In this document: piece after piece, positions 4,296 through 28,147 of the stretch
Position numbering within the stretch: position 1 is the first letter of the stretch
Layout: every line of letters begins with the position of its first letter
Source: an uncultured bacterium
GTDB taxonomy: Bacteria > Patescibacteriota > Minisyncoccia > Phycocordibacterales > Phycocordibacteraceae
DNA length: 64,000 nucleotides
Assembly: GCA_903825105.1 (NCBI GenBank)
Contig: CAIJZI010000008.1
Span: 8,401 to 72,400, forward strand
Reading direction: 5' to 3'
Notes under the pieces: model-generated
The model's database searches: none
What the model was told of the DNA's origin: nothing
Seen by the model: the letters and a program-made list of their open reading frames with translations, nothing else
Made by a program: the position numbers and the translations under genes

Positions 4296-6094
4296 AAAAA
4301 CAACTTAAAAGGGACATTTTGATAGCATCAACAGCGTTCACATTTTTTGTCGCGTCATCAGTATTTTTTATGTACCCACAAAAGGTTAGGGCGGGGGGAA
4401 TCCCTGTTTACGATCCTCTTAATCACATCGTAAATGTCATTACTTCTATCGCTGCGCCAATCACTTCAGCGTCTACACTGTTGTCCCAAATCAACTCCTA
4501 TGTTCTTCAGCCAATCGCGCTTACCTTGTCTGGGAATATATTGAAGTCGATGACGGCGAGCGCGACTTCATTTGTCAACGGGAAGAGTAATGGCACCGGT
4601 ATGCCGCAGTTTGTCACCAGTCTCCAAAACCAGTTACAGAAGACGGGAGATGTGCAGGCGCTTGCCTTCTTTTCGAATCTGAAAAATTCTAATTCACCAT
4701 TCGCGGCCTCAATCACCTCTTCTTTGAAAAATAAGTATCTCGAGAGTACCAGTCTTGCCGGGTTCTTCTCTGCGAATCAGTGCACGCTTTCTAAATCTTC
4801 TAAAAACATAAACTCTTTTCTCGCGGGTAATTGGTCTCAAGGAGGTGTCGGTGCGTGGCTCTCTCTCACGACACAAGATCAAAACAATCCCTACACGCTC
4901 TATGAAAAGGCACAGAACCAGCTCGCTTCTGTGGTAAACGCTGCACAAACAGAGAAGACCACACAGCTTAACTGGGGGCAGGGAATGCTCTCATGGTGTG
5001 GAAATGTATCGAGCTCGAGCTCTGGCTCTACGGGTGGTTCTGTGGATCCAACTTCAAGCACAGTAGACACACAAATAGACATGACTTGTTCTAATAACCA
5101 ACAGTGTCCAGGAGTTCTCGTGTGTATTTCTGGTAAATGTATAGACGATCCATTGACTACAACTTCAAGCACAATAGATACGCAAATAAACAATATAAGT
5201 ACAAAAAATCTAGATTTAAGCAATGTTAAAAACGACATCAATTCTGCTGCCTCCGCAAAATCCTTAAGCGCAGGGGACCCGTGTACCAAGAAAGATGGCT
5301 CCCCGGGCCAAATAAAAACGCCAGGCTCGGTTATTTCAGGCGCTCTTGGCAAAGCGCTCGGCGTCGAGCAGGATAAGCTCGCTCAACTAGGTAGTGCAGG
5401 CACAGAAATAAATAAACTTATGTCGAGTGTCGGGGATGTGCTGAAGTCGATGTCTATAATGACGAGTGTCGTCAACGGAGCTACTGGCGGGCTTCTTGGC
5501 GTTACCAATACCTCTGCTACCGACAGAACCTCTGAATTCTCGCAGTATGATTCAAGTGGATTCTTGGGCGCAACAGCCACCACATCAACAAAAAGTACTG
5601 ATAGCTTCGCTGTCTCTCCTTCTGTAATGACGAGTAACATCGCGCGGTATCAGGCGGCATGGAACACTATCAGCACAGCGGCGAACACTGCATCCACAAC
5701 AGTGGCGAGCCTTTTAAACACTTGTGCATCAAGCGCGAGCGAAGCACAGACCGCGCTCGATACAGAAATCGCTCCCGTTTTGAAACATGCTGCCCAAGCA
5801 ACGGTGAATATTTCACAAGCGAATGACCTACTACAGCAGATCCAAATTGATTTAGAAGACAATTCTTCTGGCACAGCATATACCAGTGATATGGTGACGC
5901 TTCAGACGACACCGCCGACGAGTGCGGATGTTTCGAATGCAGAACAAAATGCTCAAATTACAGAGTTCGCGACAACAGCAGACCCTAATTCGACCAATTC
6001 TCTCACTGTTTCTGGGGCGTCAATCCTCGACCAAATGATTCTTCTCACAACGAATGCCAACGCGCTCAAGGCCTCCTGCGGTTCTGGTATATGA
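4292..6094 (+). CDS. hypothetical secreted protein (600 aa); mature N-terminus GGIPVYDP (TrbJ/VirB5-like), two copies of a Cys-rich C-x6-C-x5-C-x3-C module, S/T-rich
   Basis: N-terminal TM/signal; IPVxD start followed by helical segments; TCSNNQQCPGVLVCISGKC module; start codon overlaps the upstream gene's stop. Confidence 0.6.
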   Translation: MKKQLKRDILIASTAFTFFVASSVFFMYPQKVRAGGIPVYDPLNHIVNVITSIAAPITSASTLLSQINSYVLQPIALTLSGNILKSMTASATSFVNGKSNGTGMPQFVTSLQNQLQKTGDVQALAFFSNLKNSNSPFAASITSSLKNKYLESTSLAGFFSANQCTLSKSSKNINSFLAGNWSQGGVGAWLSLTTQDQNNPYTLYEKAQNQLASVVNAAQTEKTTQLNWGQGMLSWCGNVSSSSSGSTGGSVDPTSSTVDTQIDMTCSNNQQCPGVLVCISGKCIDDPLTTTSSTIDTQINNISTKNLDLSNVKNDINSAASAKSLSAGDPCTKKDGSPGQIKTPGSVISGALGKALGVEQDKLAQLGSAGTEINKLMSSVGDVLKSMSIMTSVVNGATGGLLGVTNTSATDRTSEFSQYDSSGFLGATATTSTKSTDSFAVSPSVMTSNIARYQAAWNTISTAANTASTTVASLLNTCASSASEAQTALDTEIAPVLKHAAQATVNISQANDLLQQIQIDLEDNSSGTAYTSDMVTLQTTPPTSADVSNAEQNAQITEFATTADPNSTNSLTVSGASILDQMILLTTNANALKASCGSGI

Positions 6095-10624: not shown

Positions 10625-10685
10625 TTTGCGAAGCAAATTACCCTGAGCGTAGTCGAAAGGTTGGTTTTTGTGCTATATTTTTTAT

Positions 10686-10997
10686 ATGAAATATCGCAAC
10701 ACACTCCAGAAAGGTTCAGTACGCAACATAATCTTTCGCCAAGGGAAGGTGTGGTTTGGGGTGGCTCTAGAATTTAACATTGTTGAAACAGGGGATGACG
10801 CACAAGAAGTAATGATTCTTCTTGAAGAGGCGGTGCGCGGCTATCTCGCCTCAGCTCGTAAAGGTAAATTGAACGCAGCTGTTCTCAATCAGAAATCAGA
10901 ACCAGAATATGAAAATCTATGGCTTGGGAAAAATAATCCAAAGTTGATCCCGTCTCCCATTCAGATACACACTTTTAGCGAACGAACCTTTGCATAA
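10686..10997 (+). CDS. hicB: HicB-family antitoxin-like protein (N-terminal HicB fold only)
   Basis: About 100-aa protein immediately upstream of a clear HicA; AT-rich relative to flanks; HicB-like beta-alpha pattern (VALEFNIVETGDDAQEVMILLEEAVRGYL). Confidence 0.5.
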   Translation: MKYRNTLQKGSVRNIIFRQGKVWFGVALEFNIVETGDDAQEVMILLEEAVRGYLASARKGKLNAAVLNQKSEPEYENLWLGKNNPKLIPSPIQIHTFSERTFA

Positions 10998-11002
10998 TTT
11001 CT

Positions 11003-11239
11003 ATGCCGCGCGGGCTCAATAACTGGTCTTTTAGGGACATAAAACATTTTCTAGAACAACACAATTTTCATTTGAATCACATCGAAGGTAGTCATTATTT
11101 TTACACCGGTTCCTACAGAGGAGTCGTCCGCCAAGTTTCAATCCCATTTCACGGGTCAAAAACGATTCATCCTAAGACGATGAAAAGTATTGTGCGCCAG
11201 TCCGGCGTCCCGCAAGAAGAGTGGATGAAATATAAATAA
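11003..11239 (+). CDS. hicA: HicA-family mRNA interferase toxin (YcfA-like)
   Basis: 78 aa with GSH motif and HGSKTIHPKTMKSIVRQSGV C-terminus typical of HicA; 6 nt after the hicB stop. Confidence 0.7.
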   Translation: MPRGLNNWSFRDIKHFLEQHNFHLNHIEGSHYFYTGSYRGVVRQVSIPFHGSKTIHPKTMKSIVRQSGVPQEEWMKYK

Positions 11240-11311
11240 CAATAAACTGCGATTGACACTTTGTGTCAGGGGGGGGGGTAGGATTAAGGGTGTTATTAAT
11301 CCAAAAAATAT

Positions 11312-11854
11312 ATGAGCATAGAAAATCCCGAAAAATATACTCCAAGCGATGAAGAAATTAAAAAAGCAGGAGAAAATATGACAGATGCGCAAGCATATAT
11401 ATCAAACAAAAGAGAAGAGAGCGTCAAAAAATTAAAAGAAATTGGTGTAGATGGTTATTTAGAGAGACTCAGTGACGGGAAGATAAGCGGTAAAATTAAT
11501 GGTCATAAAATTGAGATTGTCCAAACTGGCGATAGCCATATGTTTCCTCATTATGAGGTTTTTGTTGATGATAATTTTAAATTAACAGAAGGCGAAGCTC
11601 ATCGCTTCGCACATAAATACCTTGGTTATAATTCTGAAAATGTCGCTGGCTACATAAAGTCTGAACGAAAGACCGTAATGATAAATTATAAAAAACTCGA
11701 TGGCACCTTAGGAAGGTATAGTGATACTACACATAAAAATATCGACATGCTCAAAGAAGCAGAGAAATTAACAAGAACAGAAGAGGGACAAAGACAAATT
11801 GAAGAACAAATTCAAGCAAAGGGAGAAAAAATGCTGAAAGAAATAGGTTTGTAA
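11312..11854 (+). CDS. hypothetical protein (180 aa), strongly AT-rich, horizontally acquired
   Basis: Long ORF with about 35% GC versus about 53% in flanking genes; preceded by a G10 tract and palindromes. Confidence 0.55.
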   Translation: MSIENPEKYTPSDEEIKKAGENMTDAQAYISNKREESVKKLKEIGVDGYLERLSDGKISGKINGHKIEIVQTGDSHMFPHYEVFVDDNFKLTEGEAHRFAHKYLGYNSENVAGYIKSERKTVMINYKKLDGTLGRYSDTTHKNIDMLKEAEKLTRTEEGQRQIEEQIQAKGEKMLKEIGL

Positions 11855-15793: not shown

Positions 15794-16201
15794 ATGCCTA
15801 CAGCTAAGACTACAAAGCCAATAGCGAAGAAAGCAAAAGCAGCTCCTAAAAAAGTTGCTGCGAAGAAAACCGCACCAGTAGCTGTCGCTCCAGCCGAGCA
15901 CAAGCTGCGCATCCGCGTCTGTGCCTACGAGCACAAGATTCTTGATCTCTCGGTGAAGCAGATTATGGACACCGCCGCCCGCTTTGATGCGGTCGTCGTT
16001 GGCCCAGTCCCGCTCCCGACTGAGATTAAGCGTTGGACAGTGAACCGTTCTACCTTCGTCCACAAGGACGCTCGCGAACAGTTCGAGATGCGCATCCACA
16101 AACGCCTCATAGATATTCTCAATCCTCTCCCGAAGGTGATCGAGGCCCTCACGAACCTCAATCTCCCAAGCGGAGTCACGATAGATGTGAAGATGGTTTA
16201 G
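15794..16201 (+). CDS. rpsJ: 30S ribosomal protein S10 with 30-aa Lys/Ala-rich N-terminal extension
   Basis: Core RIRVCAYEHKILD...THKDAREQFEMRIHKRLIDI matches S10; extra basic N-tail. Confidence 0.93.
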   Translation: MPTAKTTKPIAKKAKAAPKKVAAKKTAPVAVAPAEHKLRIRVCAYEHKILDLSVKQIMDTAARFDAVVVGPVPLPTEIKRWTVNRSTFVHKDAREQFEMRIHKRLIDILNPLPKVIEALTNLNLPSGVTIDVKMV

Positions 16202-16234
16202 CCTGAGCGAAGTCGAAGGCTTGCCAAAAACAAC

Positions 16235-16266
16235 AAAACCGGCTCACGCCGGTTTTGTTGTTTTTG
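16235..16266 (+). terminator. intrinsic terminator after rpsJ
   Basis: AAAACCGGCtcacGCCGGTTTTgttgttttt. Confidence 0.7.
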
Positions 16267-16319
16267 CTTGCATAAAATATTTTATATTATAGAATATTGA
16301 ACGGAGAAAGGAGTCTGGT

Positions 16320-16586
16320 ATGGGATATTTTGTCCCGTTTTTGGTTGAGTGCCGTGGCTGCTGGAACAGGAGTCGGCCTGACAGAAATGTGAAAGAATCA
16401 ATCCGCAAAGTTCTCGCTGGCGAATTCAAAGTCTGCAACAACTGCGGCCGTGATCTCATTGAGATTCAAGTGCCAAACAGAAAAGCGGTGCAGGAAGTTC
16501 TGAAATCGCTCGGAGGAGTTCTTCCGGAACATGTAATCATTGTTGATTACATCGGTGGGAAGTACCCAGCGAGAGGCATCGTCTAA
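16320..16586 (+). CDS. hypothetical zinc-ribbon protein (CxxC...CxxC), inserted between rpsJ and rplC
   Basis: ECRGC...VCNNCG pairs; flanked by terminators on both sides. Confidence 0.45.
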   Translation: MGYFVPFLVECRGCWNRSRPDRNVKESIRKVLAGEFKVCNNCGRDLIEIQVPNRKAVQEVLKSLGGVLPEHVIIVDYIGGKYPARGIV

Positions 16587-16590
16587 CTAG

Positions 16591-16633
16591 CGCACGCAGG
16601 GATCATTGATAATCCTTGCGTGCGTTTCTTTTT
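16591..16633 (+). terminator. intrinsic terminator
   Basis: CGCACGCAGGG...CCTTGCGTGCG stem then TTTCTTTTT. Confidence 0.65.
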
Positions 16634-16682
16634 AAGTAGTTGCATCTTTTTATACTATCGTGTAGAGTACTTGAAACGCTAT

Positions 16683-16749
16683 GTCCTTAGCAAAAGCGAA
16701 GGACCTATGGCAGAACGCGCGATGCGTCTCTGCATCGCGCGTTTTTCTT
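16683..16749 (+). promoter_or_regulatory. structured leader upstream of rplC: two hairpins, the second (GCGCGATGC..GCATCGCGC) followed by U-tract 5 nt before the ATG; attenuator-like
   Basis: Read directly from the sequence; position and shape resemble the L4-controlled S10-operon leader. Confidence 0.4.
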
Positions 16750-16754
16750 AAAAA

Positions 16755-17414
16755 ATGAAATTCATTCTCGCAAAAAAGGAAGGAATGACCCGAGTCTTCG
16801 GGGAAGATGGTCGCGCGCGAGCGGGGACTATTCTTCTTGCTGACCCTATTGTCGTGACGCAGGTGAAGACCAAAGAAGGGAAGGATAAATATTCTGCTAT
16901 TCAGGTCGGCATGGGCTCGCGAAAGGCGAAGAATGTCGGTAAGGCGGTCTTGGGTCACACCAAAGGTGTTGGCTATGAAAAGATTCGCGAATTCCGTCTC
17001 CCAACTTCATCGACTGAAGTTATGGCGGGCGAAGTCGGCGGAAAGATCGATGCTTCAATATTCGCTGTCGGCGAAGTGGTGCGCGTTTCTGGTATTACAA
17101 AAGGAAAAGGCTTCGCGGGCGGTGTGAAGCGTCACGGCTTCCACGGCGGCCCACGCACACACGGTCAGAAGCATTCTGAACGCGAGCCGGGAGCTATCGG
17201 CGGTTCGGGCGGTCGCGCAGGCGGTCGCGTCGCGAAGGGTATTCGTATGGCAGGAAGAATGGGCGGCGACAAGGTCACGGTCGAGAACCTTAAAGTGCTC
17301 GCGGTCGATGCTAAAAACGGAAAGATTATCGTCTCTGGCGCAGTCCCAGGGCCGCGCGGTACGATTCTCGAGATAACTTCAGTACCGGCTATGAAGCACG
17401 GTCGAACTGCATAA
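16755..17414 (+). CDS. rplC: 50S ribosomal protein L3
   Basis: 219 aa; GKGFAGGVKRHGF motif. Confidence 0.97.
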   Translation: MKFILAKKEGMTRVFGEDGRARAGTILLADPIVVTQVKTKEGKDKYSAIQVGMGSRKAKNVGKAVLGHTKGVGYEKIREFRLPTSSTEVMAGEVGGKIDASIFAVGEVVRVSGITKGKGFAGGVKRHGFHGGPRTHGQKHSEREPGAIGGSGGRAGGRVAKGIRMAGRMGGDKVTVENLKVLAVDAKNGKIIVSGAVPGPRGTILEITSVPAMKHGRTA

Positions 17415-19369: not shown

Positions 19370-19388
19370 AAAAATAATAAAAACAAAA

Positions 19389-19416
19389 AGCCGTTCCGCA
19401 AGGAACGGCTTTTTGT
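19389..19416 (+). terminator. intrinsic terminator after rplB
   Basis: AGCCGTTCCgcaaGGAACGGCTTTTTG. Confidence 0.7.
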
Positions 19417-19472
19417 TGACTTTTGGATGGTTTAGGTAGAGATTGCTTGAGGAAGTAAAAAGTGGAGGCGTT

Positions 19473-19637
19473 ATGCCGTTTGTCATACTGCTCGTGGGAA
19501 TTCAAAGATTTTTTCGATTTCTTGGTGGTGCAAGCGATTACGACAAGATCGTGAAAGATCTCGCAGATGCGAAAGAAGAATCAGAACGTATAAAAGAAAA
19601 GTTCAGAAGATTTAGTGGGAATAATTGGATCATCTGA
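19473..19637 (+). CDS. small hypothetical membrane-anchored protein (54 aa)
   Basis: GGAGG SD 5 nt upstream of the ATG; hydrophobic N-terminus then charged helix; possible but unproven partner of the downstream MazF-like gene. Confidence 0.35.
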   Translation: MPFVILLVGIQRFFRFLGGASDYDKIVKDLADAKEESERIKEKFRRFSGNNWII

Positions 19638-19643
19638 ATCACA

Positions 19644-19672
19644 AAGCCGGCTTGCCAGAGCCGGCTTTTCAT
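19644..19672 (+). terminator. intrinsic terminator
   Basis: AAGCCGGCTtgccagAGCCGGCTT + TTTCAT. Confidence 0.6.
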
Positions 19673-19706
19673 ATTCTTGATTTATACGCATGTTAAAATA
19701 TTTTGG

Positions 19707-20093
19707 ATGAAAAAGTTTTTTGAGTGGATTGGGCTGAAGGAAAAACTTCACGAAACTGCTCATAAGCCGCCATTCGTGTCGGAGCGCGAAATTTGGTGGG
19801 TGAGCCTTGGAGAGAATGTCGGTTCAGAAATGAATGGCAAAAGCGATCGATTTACGAGACCTGCGCTCGTCTTAAAGAAGTTGGCGCACGGTTTCTTTCT
19901 TGTCGCGCCGACCACGACTCAGCATCACGAAGGAAGTTGGTATATCAGAGTCTCGCTCGAAGGAAAAGATGAATATGTGTGTCTCAACCAAATCAGAACG
20001 ATTGACCATCGGCGGTTGTATTCACGTCTCGGCAAGCTCGACGACGATGATTTTAGTAAAGTGAAGGAAGGATTTAAGAAACTGTATCTATAA
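19707..20093 (+). CDS. mazF: MazF/PemK-family endoribonuclease toxin
   Basis: REIWWVSLGENVGSE...RPALVL...LVAPTTTQ...CLNQIRTIDHRRL aligns with the MazF/PemK core; start could be 19677 or 19707. Confidence 0.7.
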   Translation: MKKFFEWIGLKEKLHETAHKPPFVSEREIWWVSLGENVGSEMNGKSDRFTRPALVLKKLAHGFFLVAPTTTQHHEGSWYIRVSLEGKDEYVCLNQIRTIDHRRLYSRLGKLDDDDFSKVKEGFKKLYL

Positions 20094-20357
20094 AATGTTC
20101 CACCGCCTTTTGGGCGGTGGTCGCGGCGAATGCCGAATGTGTTCGTAGTATAGAGCAGCTCTGTTTAAAAAGCAATGAAGTGGGGATAACTAAAAAATAA
20201 GGAAGGGACGGCTGAATAAATCGCGTTTAATTTCACATTTGTCAACGTTCTGGAATGGGCTAGGATTTATGAGGCTGTTTTGGAACAGTAGTTTGACTTT
20301 CAATACGGCTTCCTGTATCTTTCAGGTATCCCGTTAGCGCGGGCTTTTCATTGCTTT

Positions 20358-23269: not shown

Positions 23270-23821
23270 ATGTCTATCACCAAACAAAAACAGCAGTCCA
23301 GTTATCTCGCTCTCGCCGAGCAATTTGGCTATACGAGCCCGATGCAGGGCGTGCGCATTGAGAAGGTCATCGTCTCTTCTGGCGTTGGTAAGAAGCGCGA
23401 CAAGAAGCAGATCGAGCTCATCGAGAATCGCCTCGCGAAAATAACGGGACAGAAGTCAGCAAAGCGCCCAGCGAAGACCTCTATCGCCGCCTTTAAGGTG
23501 CGCGAAGGCGACACGGTTGGCCTCCAGACAACGCTTCGCGGCGCGCGCATGTACGACTTCGTCGACAAGCTCATCCACATCGCTCTCCCGCGCACACGCG
23601 ACTTCCGTGGCCTCTCTCCAAAAGCGATTGACGATATGGGTAATATCACGGTCGGTATCCGCGAGCACACGATCTTCCCCGAGACTTCTGACGAAGATAT
23701 TAAAGATGTCTTCGGTCTCGCGATAACAATCGTCACGACTGCGAAGTCAAAGGCAGAAGCAGAGGCATTCTTCCGCCATATCGGCATGCCGCTGACCGAT
23801 GGGGCAGAAACAAAGAAATAA
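23270..23821 (+). CDS. rplE: 50S ribosomal protein L5
   Basis: 183 aa; sequence and position. Confidence 0.96.
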   Translation: MSITKQKQQSSYLALAEQFGYTSPMQGVRIEKVIVSSGVGKKRDKKQIELIENRLAKITGQKSAKRPAKTSIAAFKVREGDTVGLQTTLRGARMYDFVDKLIHIALPRTRDFRGLSPKAIDDMGNITVGIREHTIFPETSDEDIKDVFGLAITIVTTAKSKAEAEAFFRHIGMPLTDGAETKK

Positions 23822-23833
23822 TTTTGTAAACAA

Positions 23834-23871
23834 AACCCGCGGCGACCATTCGGTCGCCGCGGTTTTTGTTT
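23834..23871 (+). terminator. intrinsic terminator after rplE
   Basis: AACCCGCGGCGACCattCGGTCGCCGCGGTTTTTGTTTG. Confidence 0.75.
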
Positions 23872-23930
23872 GTGGTCTTGACAGAATAATTTGATTGAGT
23901 ATTGTAATAGCGGAAAAGAAGGAGGCAGAA

Positions 23931-28118: not shown

Positions 28119-28147
28119 TGCATTTTGTAAAAAGTGCGGTATACTCT
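28119..28147 (+). promoter_or_regulatory. sigma70-like promoter TTGCAT-N16-TATACT for the receiver gene
   Basis: Read directly from the sequence. Confidence 0.55.

Follow-up and report, generated by a model that had tools for sequence, protein, structure and literature searches.

A conserved two-hairpin leader upstream of rplC as a candidate transcription attenuator in the split S10 cluster of Paceibacterota

The S10 leader of Escherichia coli, known from the works of Zengel and Lindahl, precedes rpsJ and is composed of five hairpins (HA-HG), of which HD and HE are required for attenuation, while the start codon of S10 is overlapped by HG; its mechanism relies on a pause dependent on NusA, and the family is confined to Gammaproteobacteria (PMC3616713). 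In the infC-rpmI-rplT leader from Bacillus subtilis, L20 provokes premature termination at a terminator/antiterminator (PMC1865079), and for Archaeoglobi a candidate L4-responsive leader of ribosomal protein (r-protein) genes, rated "?" by its authors, is reported directly before rplC-rplD-rplW-rplB by Eckert and Weinberg (2020; PMC7247131). Motifs of such r-protein leaders (r-leaders) are included among Rfam families (Rfam 14 paper). In the literature we found no r-protein leader described for Patescibacteria, none located before bacterial rplC, and no work on how bacteria of the candidate phyla radiation (CPR), with their tiny genomes and few regulators, balance the synthesis of r-proteins and ribosomal RNA (rRNA). 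Here we analyze a leader of about 80 nucleotides (nt) lying between rpsJ and rplC in a 64,000-nt stretch of contig CAIJZI010000008.1 (hereafter the window), whose L3 protein has its closest counterparts (73-77% identity) exclusively in metagenome-assembled genomes of Paceibacterota (Parcubacteria, Kaiserbacteria-like). This leader is very probably a conserved cis-regulatory RNA, and we favor, with less certainty, its function as a protein-dependent transcription attenuator of rplC-rplD-rplW-rplB, most likely serving r-protein feedback. Its assignment as a previously uncatalogued case within the known class of r-protein leaders is well supported, and it would give the CPR group an r-protein regulatory RNA backed by comparative genomics.

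With the S10 leader of E. coli the rplC leader shares a downstream unit including rplC-rplD-rplW-rplB, a terminator near the first start codon, a hairpin upstream of the terminator hairpin, and the possibility of combined transcriptional and translational control. It differs from the latter in being situated between rpsJ, which is supplied with its own terminator, and rplC rather than before rpsJ; in having two hairpins in the terminated state, none of them on the start codon, against five with HG covering the S10 start; and in the classical antiterminator predicted in place of a NusA-dependent pause. By analogy of mechanism, the infC leader of B. subtilis appears to be the closest relative, both being 5′ untranslated regions (UTRs) of r-protein operons with mutually exclusive terminator and antiterminator and with termination provoked when an r-protein of the operon binds a conserved domain, established there and proposed here. 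Nevertheless, sequence and fold are unrelated, the length is about 200 nt there and about 80 nt here, operon and lineage are others, and the binding of L20 and the rRNA mimicry were demonstrated experimentally, whereas the rplC leader is known from sequence alone. The Archaeoglobi candidate has in common with it a structured motif at the same operon position, with a ligand proposed by precedent only; it is archaeal, and the available sections of its description (PMC7247131) contain no terminator/antiterminator platform. Rfam 15 models gave no match at gathering score either in the window or in 20 leader-bearing loci of relatives, and for positions 16150-16850 at E<=10 only generic terminator look-alikes were returned, with nothing for the leader. 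Since in a control no Rfam 15 model matched the S10 leader of E. coli itself, the comparison with L4/S10 leader models of this database is void.

Folding of the RNA from 16668 to 16770 yields exactly two hairpins (-39.8 kcal/mol, z-score -6.3; none of 200 shuffled sequences folded as well). In hairpin 1, the candidate sensor (-14.8 kcal/mol, z -4.1), C16705 and U16706 are bulged, the outer helix contains a conserved U.G pair and the tip is variable. Hairpin 2 (-24.2 kcal/mol, z -5.7) has the features of an intrinsic (Rho-independent) terminator, i.e., a GC-rich stem followed by UUUUUCUU, after which five A residues precede the ATG of rplC, so that the U tract ends 5 nt and the stem 9 nt upstream of the start codon. 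Transcription presumably begins near 16675, about 7 nt past the TAGAGT element. The pattern TTGCAT-N16-18-TANANT occurs five times in the window compared to 0.47 expected, always on the + strand, and the sites precede rpsL, tuf (14397), an orphan open reading frame (ORF) inserted between rpsJ and rplC, the rplC leader, and an ORF at 28134 with a response-regulator domain, which overlaps an adenylate-kinase ORF; among relatives, both GTAGAGT and TTGCAT are invariant or nearly so. The original prediction, made from the letters of this stretch, had described an S10 operon split after rpsJ, a terminator belonging to rpsJ, a zinc-ribbon ORF closed by a second terminator, a TTGCAT-N17-TAGAGT promoter, and a leader with two hairpins, the second of which runs into a U tract 5 nt before the rplC ATG, and this layout is fully confirmed at the positions given there (Table 1). 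Its remark that rplC has no Shine-Dalgarno (SD) sequence is true but says nothing specific about the leader, as nine other translation genes of the window are devoid of it as well (ten in total: rplC, fusA, tuf, rpsJ, rplD, rplW, rplB, rpsS, rplV, and rpsC); with SD sequences lacking genome-wide, their absence at rplC is uninformative.

Table 1. Features of the rpsJ-rplC region (positions in the window)
Feature	Position	Strand	Characteristics
rpsJ (S10)	15794..16201	+	Pfam PF00338, E 2e-31, residues 39-133; last gene of tuf-rpsJ unit
Intrinsic terminator of rpsJ unit	16225..16270	+	hairpin 16225-16266, 19-bp stem, 4-nt loop, T-rich tail; -30.7 kcal/mol, z -7.9
Promoter-like site of inserted ORF	16268..16295	+	TTGCAT-N16-TAGAAT, pattern search
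Orphan 88-amino-acid Cys4 (zinc-ribbon-like) ORF	16320..16586	+	two CxxC pairs; lineage-specific cargo
Terminator of inserted ORF	16589..16634	+	stem 16589-16626 followed by TCTTTTT; -25.3 kcal/mol, z -6.2
Promoter of rplC unit	16640..16668	+	-35 TTGCAT 16640-16645, N17, -10 TAGAGT 16663-16668
5′ flank (G)AAACGC	16673..16679	+	can pair with GCGUUUU 16739-16745 in the read-through conformer (helix P0)
Hairpin 1, candidate sensor	16678..16711	+	outer helix 16678-16682/16707-16711; inner helix 16683-16688/16699-16704
Upstream ORF, 14 codons (MAERAMRLCIARFS)	16707..16751	+	ATG inside CCUAUGGC motif; considered incidental
Predicted antiterminator hairpin	16710..16733	+	16710-16718 with 16724-16727 and 16729-16733; -12.3 kcal/mol
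Predicted terminator hairpin 2 and U tract	16712..16749	+	16712-16725/16732-16745, 14 base pairs (bp), loop GUCUCU; U tract 16742-16749
rplC (L3)	16755..17414	+	opens regulated unit rplC-rplD-rplW-rplB (to 19369)

According to PMC7247131, an r-leader class is recognized by a consistent 5′ UTR position before r-protein genes, by conserved covarying secondary structure, and by an expression platform. Positional consistency was assessed over 160 rplC-centered loci fetched from relatives (L001-L160; 80 species representatives and 80 metagenome contigs), which together with the window make up about 0.9 Mb. A covariance model (R1) built from the eight closest relatives gave 24 matches on the + strand at E<1e-3, each of them directly upstream of rplC and 3′ of the conserved promoter, and with relaxed motif searches included about 35 of the 160 rplC loci carry the leader. 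In the 260 nt upstream of rplC, a strict sensor descriptor shows an enrichment of about 43-fold over the remainder of the loci. The original prediction had made persistence of the hairpins in related genomes decisive, and the eight closest relatives have all retained the promoter and the U tract together with both hairpins, the gap between rpsJ and rplC varying from 159 nt to 2.3 kb. The leader is found only with a gap of 100 nt or more (27 of the 76 loci having one, versus 0 of 54), lineages deprived of it having mostly gaps below 100 nt, and it is retained regardless of the cargo, if any, between the two genes. Relatives having no inserted gene still possess the terminator, the TTGCAT promoter and the leader within 160-190 nt, the split of S10 after rpsJ being a lineage trait and not a local accident; counterparts of the rpsJ-type terminator immediately 5′ of TTGCAT are present in L002, L004, L007, and L008. 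For the conserved core of the sensor a separate covariance model (R2) was used, and hairpin 1 is its sole match with a convincing score in the window (E 1.5e-5). Weaker R1 or R2 matches were judged to be fortuitous at 4442-4580, inside a 600-amino-acid ORF, and at 23820-23876, a plain terminator; the segment 20688-20724 at the rpsS/rplV junction (R2 E 4.1; CGCUAA-N20-CUAUGGCAA, its AUG being the rplV start) is probably a chance match too.

Covariation, proposed as a check in the original prediction, was found in both hairpins and additionally in an antiterminator which that prediction did not contain. In the alignment of R1 matches (A4), 91.6% of cells are paired compared to 77% in shuffles and 22-45% in slid controls, two-sided changes being registered in 10 of 19 pairs, and on most measures the observed values were reached by none of 500 shuffles. 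For the sensor core aligned over 30 lineages, the paired fraction is 92% (16-43% in slid controls) with two-sided changes in five of nine pairs; the outermost pair alone is encountered as GC, CG, UA, and GU. The consensus 5′-S-C-U-A-Y-G[variable stem-loop]C-C-W-A-U-G-G-S-3′ comprises an outer helix of 4-5 bp with a nearly invariant U.G, one 5′ nucleotide opposite a 3-nt bulge on the 3′ side, and a freely covarying inner helix with tips from 4 to more than 60 nt. Since the sensor contains U.G wobbles, the + strand is the functional one. The terminator (helix 3) has changed on both sides in five of its nine pairs, and all 14 leaders of the close clade and all 12 of the more distant group D1 have kept a GC-rich stem with a U run ahead of the AUG, the run ending 3-20 nt before the start codon; in D1 the terminator stems are of other sequence and an extra small hairpin is added.

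The switch was approached by folding leader transcripts truncated so as to lack the 3′ arm of the terminator. In 12 of 14 leaders of the close clade the minimum free energy structure then has, instead of the outer helix of hairpin 1, an antiterminator. One side of it combines the 3′ strand of this helix with the linker and the beginning of the terminator 5′ arm, and the other is formed by the terminator top and loop together with the initial bases of the 3′ arm. In the window the antiterminator covers 2 nt of the outer helix, 9 of the 14 nt in the terminator 5′ arm and 2 nt at the beginning of the 3′ arm, and it is mutually exclusive with both the outer helix and the terminator. Across the close clade 91% of antiterminator cells are paired (18-56% in slid controls) with two-sided changes at three pairs, and this pairing explains why the terminator loop keeps GCG and UUGC/UCUGYCA unchanged, which is otherwise puzzling. 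In type B leaders, where CCUCCAGC replaces the CCUAUGGC of type A, the outer helix is broken by substitutions for which the antiterminator has compensating changes. In D1 the sensor 3′ strand CAAUGGC is complementary over 6-8 bp to GCYAUUG, situated within the terminator 5′ arm and loop (11 of 11 leaders), and in L101 all three partners have changed together (GGG/CCC/CCUA); judging by these complementarities, D1 appears to reach the same switch logic by a different route, and two sub-lineages would have built the terminator/antiterminator switch differently around one sensor strand. Taken over close clade and D1, the expression platform consists in silico of a terminator with U tract in 26 of 26 leaders and of a mutually exclusive antiterminator in 26 of 26. 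Once the antiterminator is enforced, a further helix P0 (GAAACGC 16673-16679 with GCGUUUU 16739-16745) closes a compact three-way junction in 13 of 14 close-clade leaders; its covariation comprises one A-U/U-A pair tracking the type A/B division plus L116, judged by eye, and we regard it as tentative.

These structures suggest the following course of events. After transcription has started about 7 nt downstream of TAGAGT, hairpin 1 would form first, exposing its outer helix (GCUAU/AUGGC) and the asymmetric internal loop as the conserved sensor. Unless an effector is bound, the outer helix, which is weak, would open, its 3′ strand folding together with the linker and the initial half of the terminator 5′ arm into the antiterminator and thereby allowing RNA polymerase to pass the U tract and to transcribe rplC, a state which P0 may then lock. 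Read-through is proposed as the default in view of the weakness of the outer helix and of its displacement by the antiterminator when truncated transcripts are folded. An effector clamping hairpin 1 would preclude the antiterminator, let the 14-bp terminator form and stop transcription 5-10 nt before the AUG. Since hairpin 2 ends 9 nt before an SD-less start, an additional translational contribution is possible. With its short irregular helix, loop nucleotides conserved in sequence and a tip that can be dispensed with, the sensor looks, by analogy, the way binding sites of proteins tend to; this likeness and the occurrence before r-protein genes only make autogenous r-protein feedback the natural reading. 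The effector would most plausibly be an excess primary rRNA-binding protein of the unit: L4 is suggested by the precedents of the E. coli S10 leader and the Archaeoglobi candidate, with L3, L23, and L2 equally eligible, and L4 specifically, a guess in the original prediction that has precedent as its sole basis, is a tentative candidate that we consider possible rather than probable. The 34-nt RNA of hairpin 1 together with this short list of proteins offers concrete material for binding tests.

Several points weigh against r-protein-dependent attenuation. The sensor is small, and a part of its sequence conservation is explained by the alternative pairing partners. Much of the covariation amounts to a single split between types A and B, so that independent events are few. 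In several relatives the minimum free energy fold gives up the outer helix in favor of a longer terminator base, and in the window the overlap of the antiterminator with the outer helix is only 2 nt. The stability of the antiterminator (-12 kcal/mol) falls far short of that of the terminator (-24 kcal/mol), so that read-through depends on kinetics. Termination and its regulation are themselves predictions read from the sequence. Model R2 had no match in the 16S-23S-5S operon of E. coli at E<=10, and in the absence of resemblance to E. coli rRNA no particular protein is indicated. A scan of the same rRNAs for C[AU]AUGG with a 5′ partner hit 23S at 2294/2326 and 16S at about 1237, a count equal to chance expectation; the 23S fold at 2294/2326 in the accepted structure differs from the sensor.

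Several alternative explanations were considered. The leader might be mainly or only a translational operator, in which hairpin 2 together with a protein bound to hairpin 1 blocks the 30S subunit at an A/U-rich SD-less start and the U run serves as a ribosome landing site. The distance of 9 nt between stem and AUG in a genome initiating translation without SD fits such a function, as does the control of both transcription and translation by the S10 leader of E. coli (PMC3616713), and sensor-like hairpins devoid of a terminator stand close to the rplC start in L064 (about 5 nt before the AUG) and, with similar topology, in the Yonath/Nomurabacteria type (7-19 nt before it). These start-proximal variants, however, have no convincing R2 E-value and hence may be unrelated, the covarying antiterminator would be left with no role, and the retention of a GC stem with an immediate U run across divergent terminator sequences would be unexplained, which makes a mainly or only translational operator unlikely. 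Nor is it easy to see in the leader a constitutive structure having no effector, that is, a leaky terminator fixing the expression level or insulating rplC, and/or a 5′ stem-loop stabilizing the mRNA. A very stable terminator near a strong promoter, the usefulness of insulation at an insertion hotspot and the fact that only candidates can be named for the effector speak for it; but the promoter lies upstream of the terminator, which thus cannot insulate it, and a passive hairpin is not expected to conserve the sequence of its internal loop, beyond mere pairing, along with a covarying alternative helix. We therefore consider this version distinctly unlikely. Another option is that hairpin 1 senses something other than an r-protein, either a small molecule or an ion, in the manner of a compact riboswitch, or an RNA-binding protein that is not ribosomal, since terminator/antiterminator logic suits any ligand and no mimicry of E. 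coli rRNA was found. A 4-5-bp helix, a 1x3 loop and a further helix with variable tip nevertheless look like a protein site and are too simple for most aptamers, no Rfam riboswitch matches, and the element stands only before r-protein genes, making such a ligand quite improbable.

The three remaining alternatives are less likely still. Promoter, structured RNA and strong terminator together constitute a full unit resembling the gene of a small RNA (sRNA), so that an independent sRNA of about 75 nt could be imagined with rplC transcribed by read-through; yet the unit is always attached to the rplC start, leaves no space for a second rplC promoter, occurs nowhere else in 0.9 Mb, and has an antiterminator implying that read-through is a regulated outcome, and this origin is very improbable. 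Homology to the L4-responsive S10 leader of E. coli, moved before rplC, was suggested by the common plan of a hairpin followed by a terminator hairpin near the first start codon of an operon containing rplD, and was part of the original prediction. The attenuator-type nature of the element has been upheld by conserved, covarying hairpins and the antiterminator, but its derivation from the E. coli leader has not: neither R1 (E<=0.0015) nor R2 (filters off, E<=10) had a match in the S10 leader of the E. coli locus (L162), two hairpins with none over the start codon face five, the position is different, and the E. coli family is restricted to Gammaproteobacteria. Membership in that family was rejected, and such homology is scarcely credible. 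The last possibility is attenuation by translation of a leader peptide from the AUG in CCUAUGGC. The 14-codon upstream ORF running from 16707 to its stop at 16749-16751 extends across the terminator, and most members have the AUG, with a purine-rich GGA before it; but type B leaders and L003 lack this AUG, and the frame extends from 5 codons to read-through into rplC, with length, frame and peptide not conserved. This ORF was accordingly rejected as the basis of regulation, which we hold to be extremely improbable in such a form, and a 43-amino-acid ORF at 16620-16751 was dismissed because it starts upstream of the promoter.

A broader reading, possible though not likely, is that hairpin 1 is a compact modular sensor for something other than L4, such as another protein (e.g., L3), a small molecule or an alarmone, mounted on at least two to three platforms across Paceibacterota lineages: a local antiterminator hairpin, a long-range antiterminator, and a start-codon-proximal placement. 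We know of no autoregulatory RNA for L3. If true, this sensor would regulate how ultra-small CPR bacteria make ribosomes throughout the phylum. Several variants upstream of rplC were recorded among the relatives. In L025, L068, L149, L160, and L076, at 100-190 nt from the gene, AGACCUAYG...GGACCAAUGGGCACAAA stands ahead of a hairpin that is long and perfect and of another UAUGGGUC copy, which could pair with the 5′ strand, with no obvious U tract; this group probably combines the same sensor with a different expression platform. In L012, L014, L018, L033, L051, L089, and L098, of Yonath/Nomurabacteria type, the hairpin ACCA-A-C[hairpin]G-CAA-UGGU has the topology of the sensor (a 4-bp helix and a 1x3 loop with CAA) and is AUG-adjacent, accompanied by UUACCG repeats; R2 does not detect it, and its identity with the sensor was not accepted beyond a lead. 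The sensor-like hairpin of L064 is weak as well (R2 E 3.2). In L116 and L037, about 220-250 nt upstream of rplC, roughly 200 nt of apparently structured sequence with repeated "...GGCGGGU..." blocks lie between sensor/terminator and the gene.

Returning to the rplC unit and its surroundings, the window has the gene order rpsL-rpsG, two unknown ORFs, fusA, tuf-rpsJ, the orphan 88-amino-acid ORF, rplC-rplD-rplW-rplB, a 64-amino-acid ORF with a PemK/MazF toxin, and rpsS-rplV-rpsC onward. The start assigned to rplC is correct, MKFILAKKEGMTRVF agreeing with the canonical N-terminus of L3, as in E. coli. The unit rplC-rplD-rplW-rplB ends at the terminator-flanked MazF insertion. Upstream of it, the orphan Cys4 ORF has no significant Pfam match and among 5.8 billion proteins only its own sequence was retrieved, so that it is uninformative about the leader. 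Its region (16268-16634) is flanked by two TTGCAT promoter starts (16268 and 16640), and it is the only gene of the region with a strong SD (GGAGAAAGGAG); these TTGCAT copies on both sides and the strong SD in a genome with SD-less core genes suggest a cassette recently acquired between the rpsJ terminator and the rplC promoter. In other genomes the cargo between terminator and promoter is different, being represented by a sugar transferase (Bac_transf), a PaaX/Cas2-like protein, a ParE toxin, an NYN-domain protein, a NUDIX hydrolase or orphans. The rpsJ/rplC junction of leader-bearing Paceibacterota has the appearance of an insertion hotspot, with unrelated genes in gaps of 0.5-2.3 kb (L001-L160).

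The ancestral str-S10 cluster is in these lineages divided into units having promoters and terminators of their own, the junctions of which receive accessory genes. S10 itself bears an N-terminal Lys/Ala/Pro-rich extension of about 38 residues (15794-15910) outside the Pfam match, relatives being alignable only from residue ~35. Within the str cluster a break at 10668-11854 is occupied by two ORFs (109 and 180 amino acids, no Pfam match) between rpsG and fusA. A further break, in the S10 cluster between rplB and rpsS (19370-20357), harbors the 64-amino-acid ORF (19443-19637) and the PemK/MazF-like toxin (19677-20093, Pfam E 1.5e-16), terminator-like hairpins at 19382-19417, 19643-19668, and 20100-20120, and promoter-like sites at 20239-20321. 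At 20330-20357, 3′ of these promoter-like sites, a small GC hairpin (CCCGTTAGCGCGGG) with CTTTTC stands 14 nt 5′ of the rpsS ATG, and in the window the 5′ region of rpsS shares with that of rplC the layout of a promoter, a short hairpin with a U run, and an SD-less ATG.

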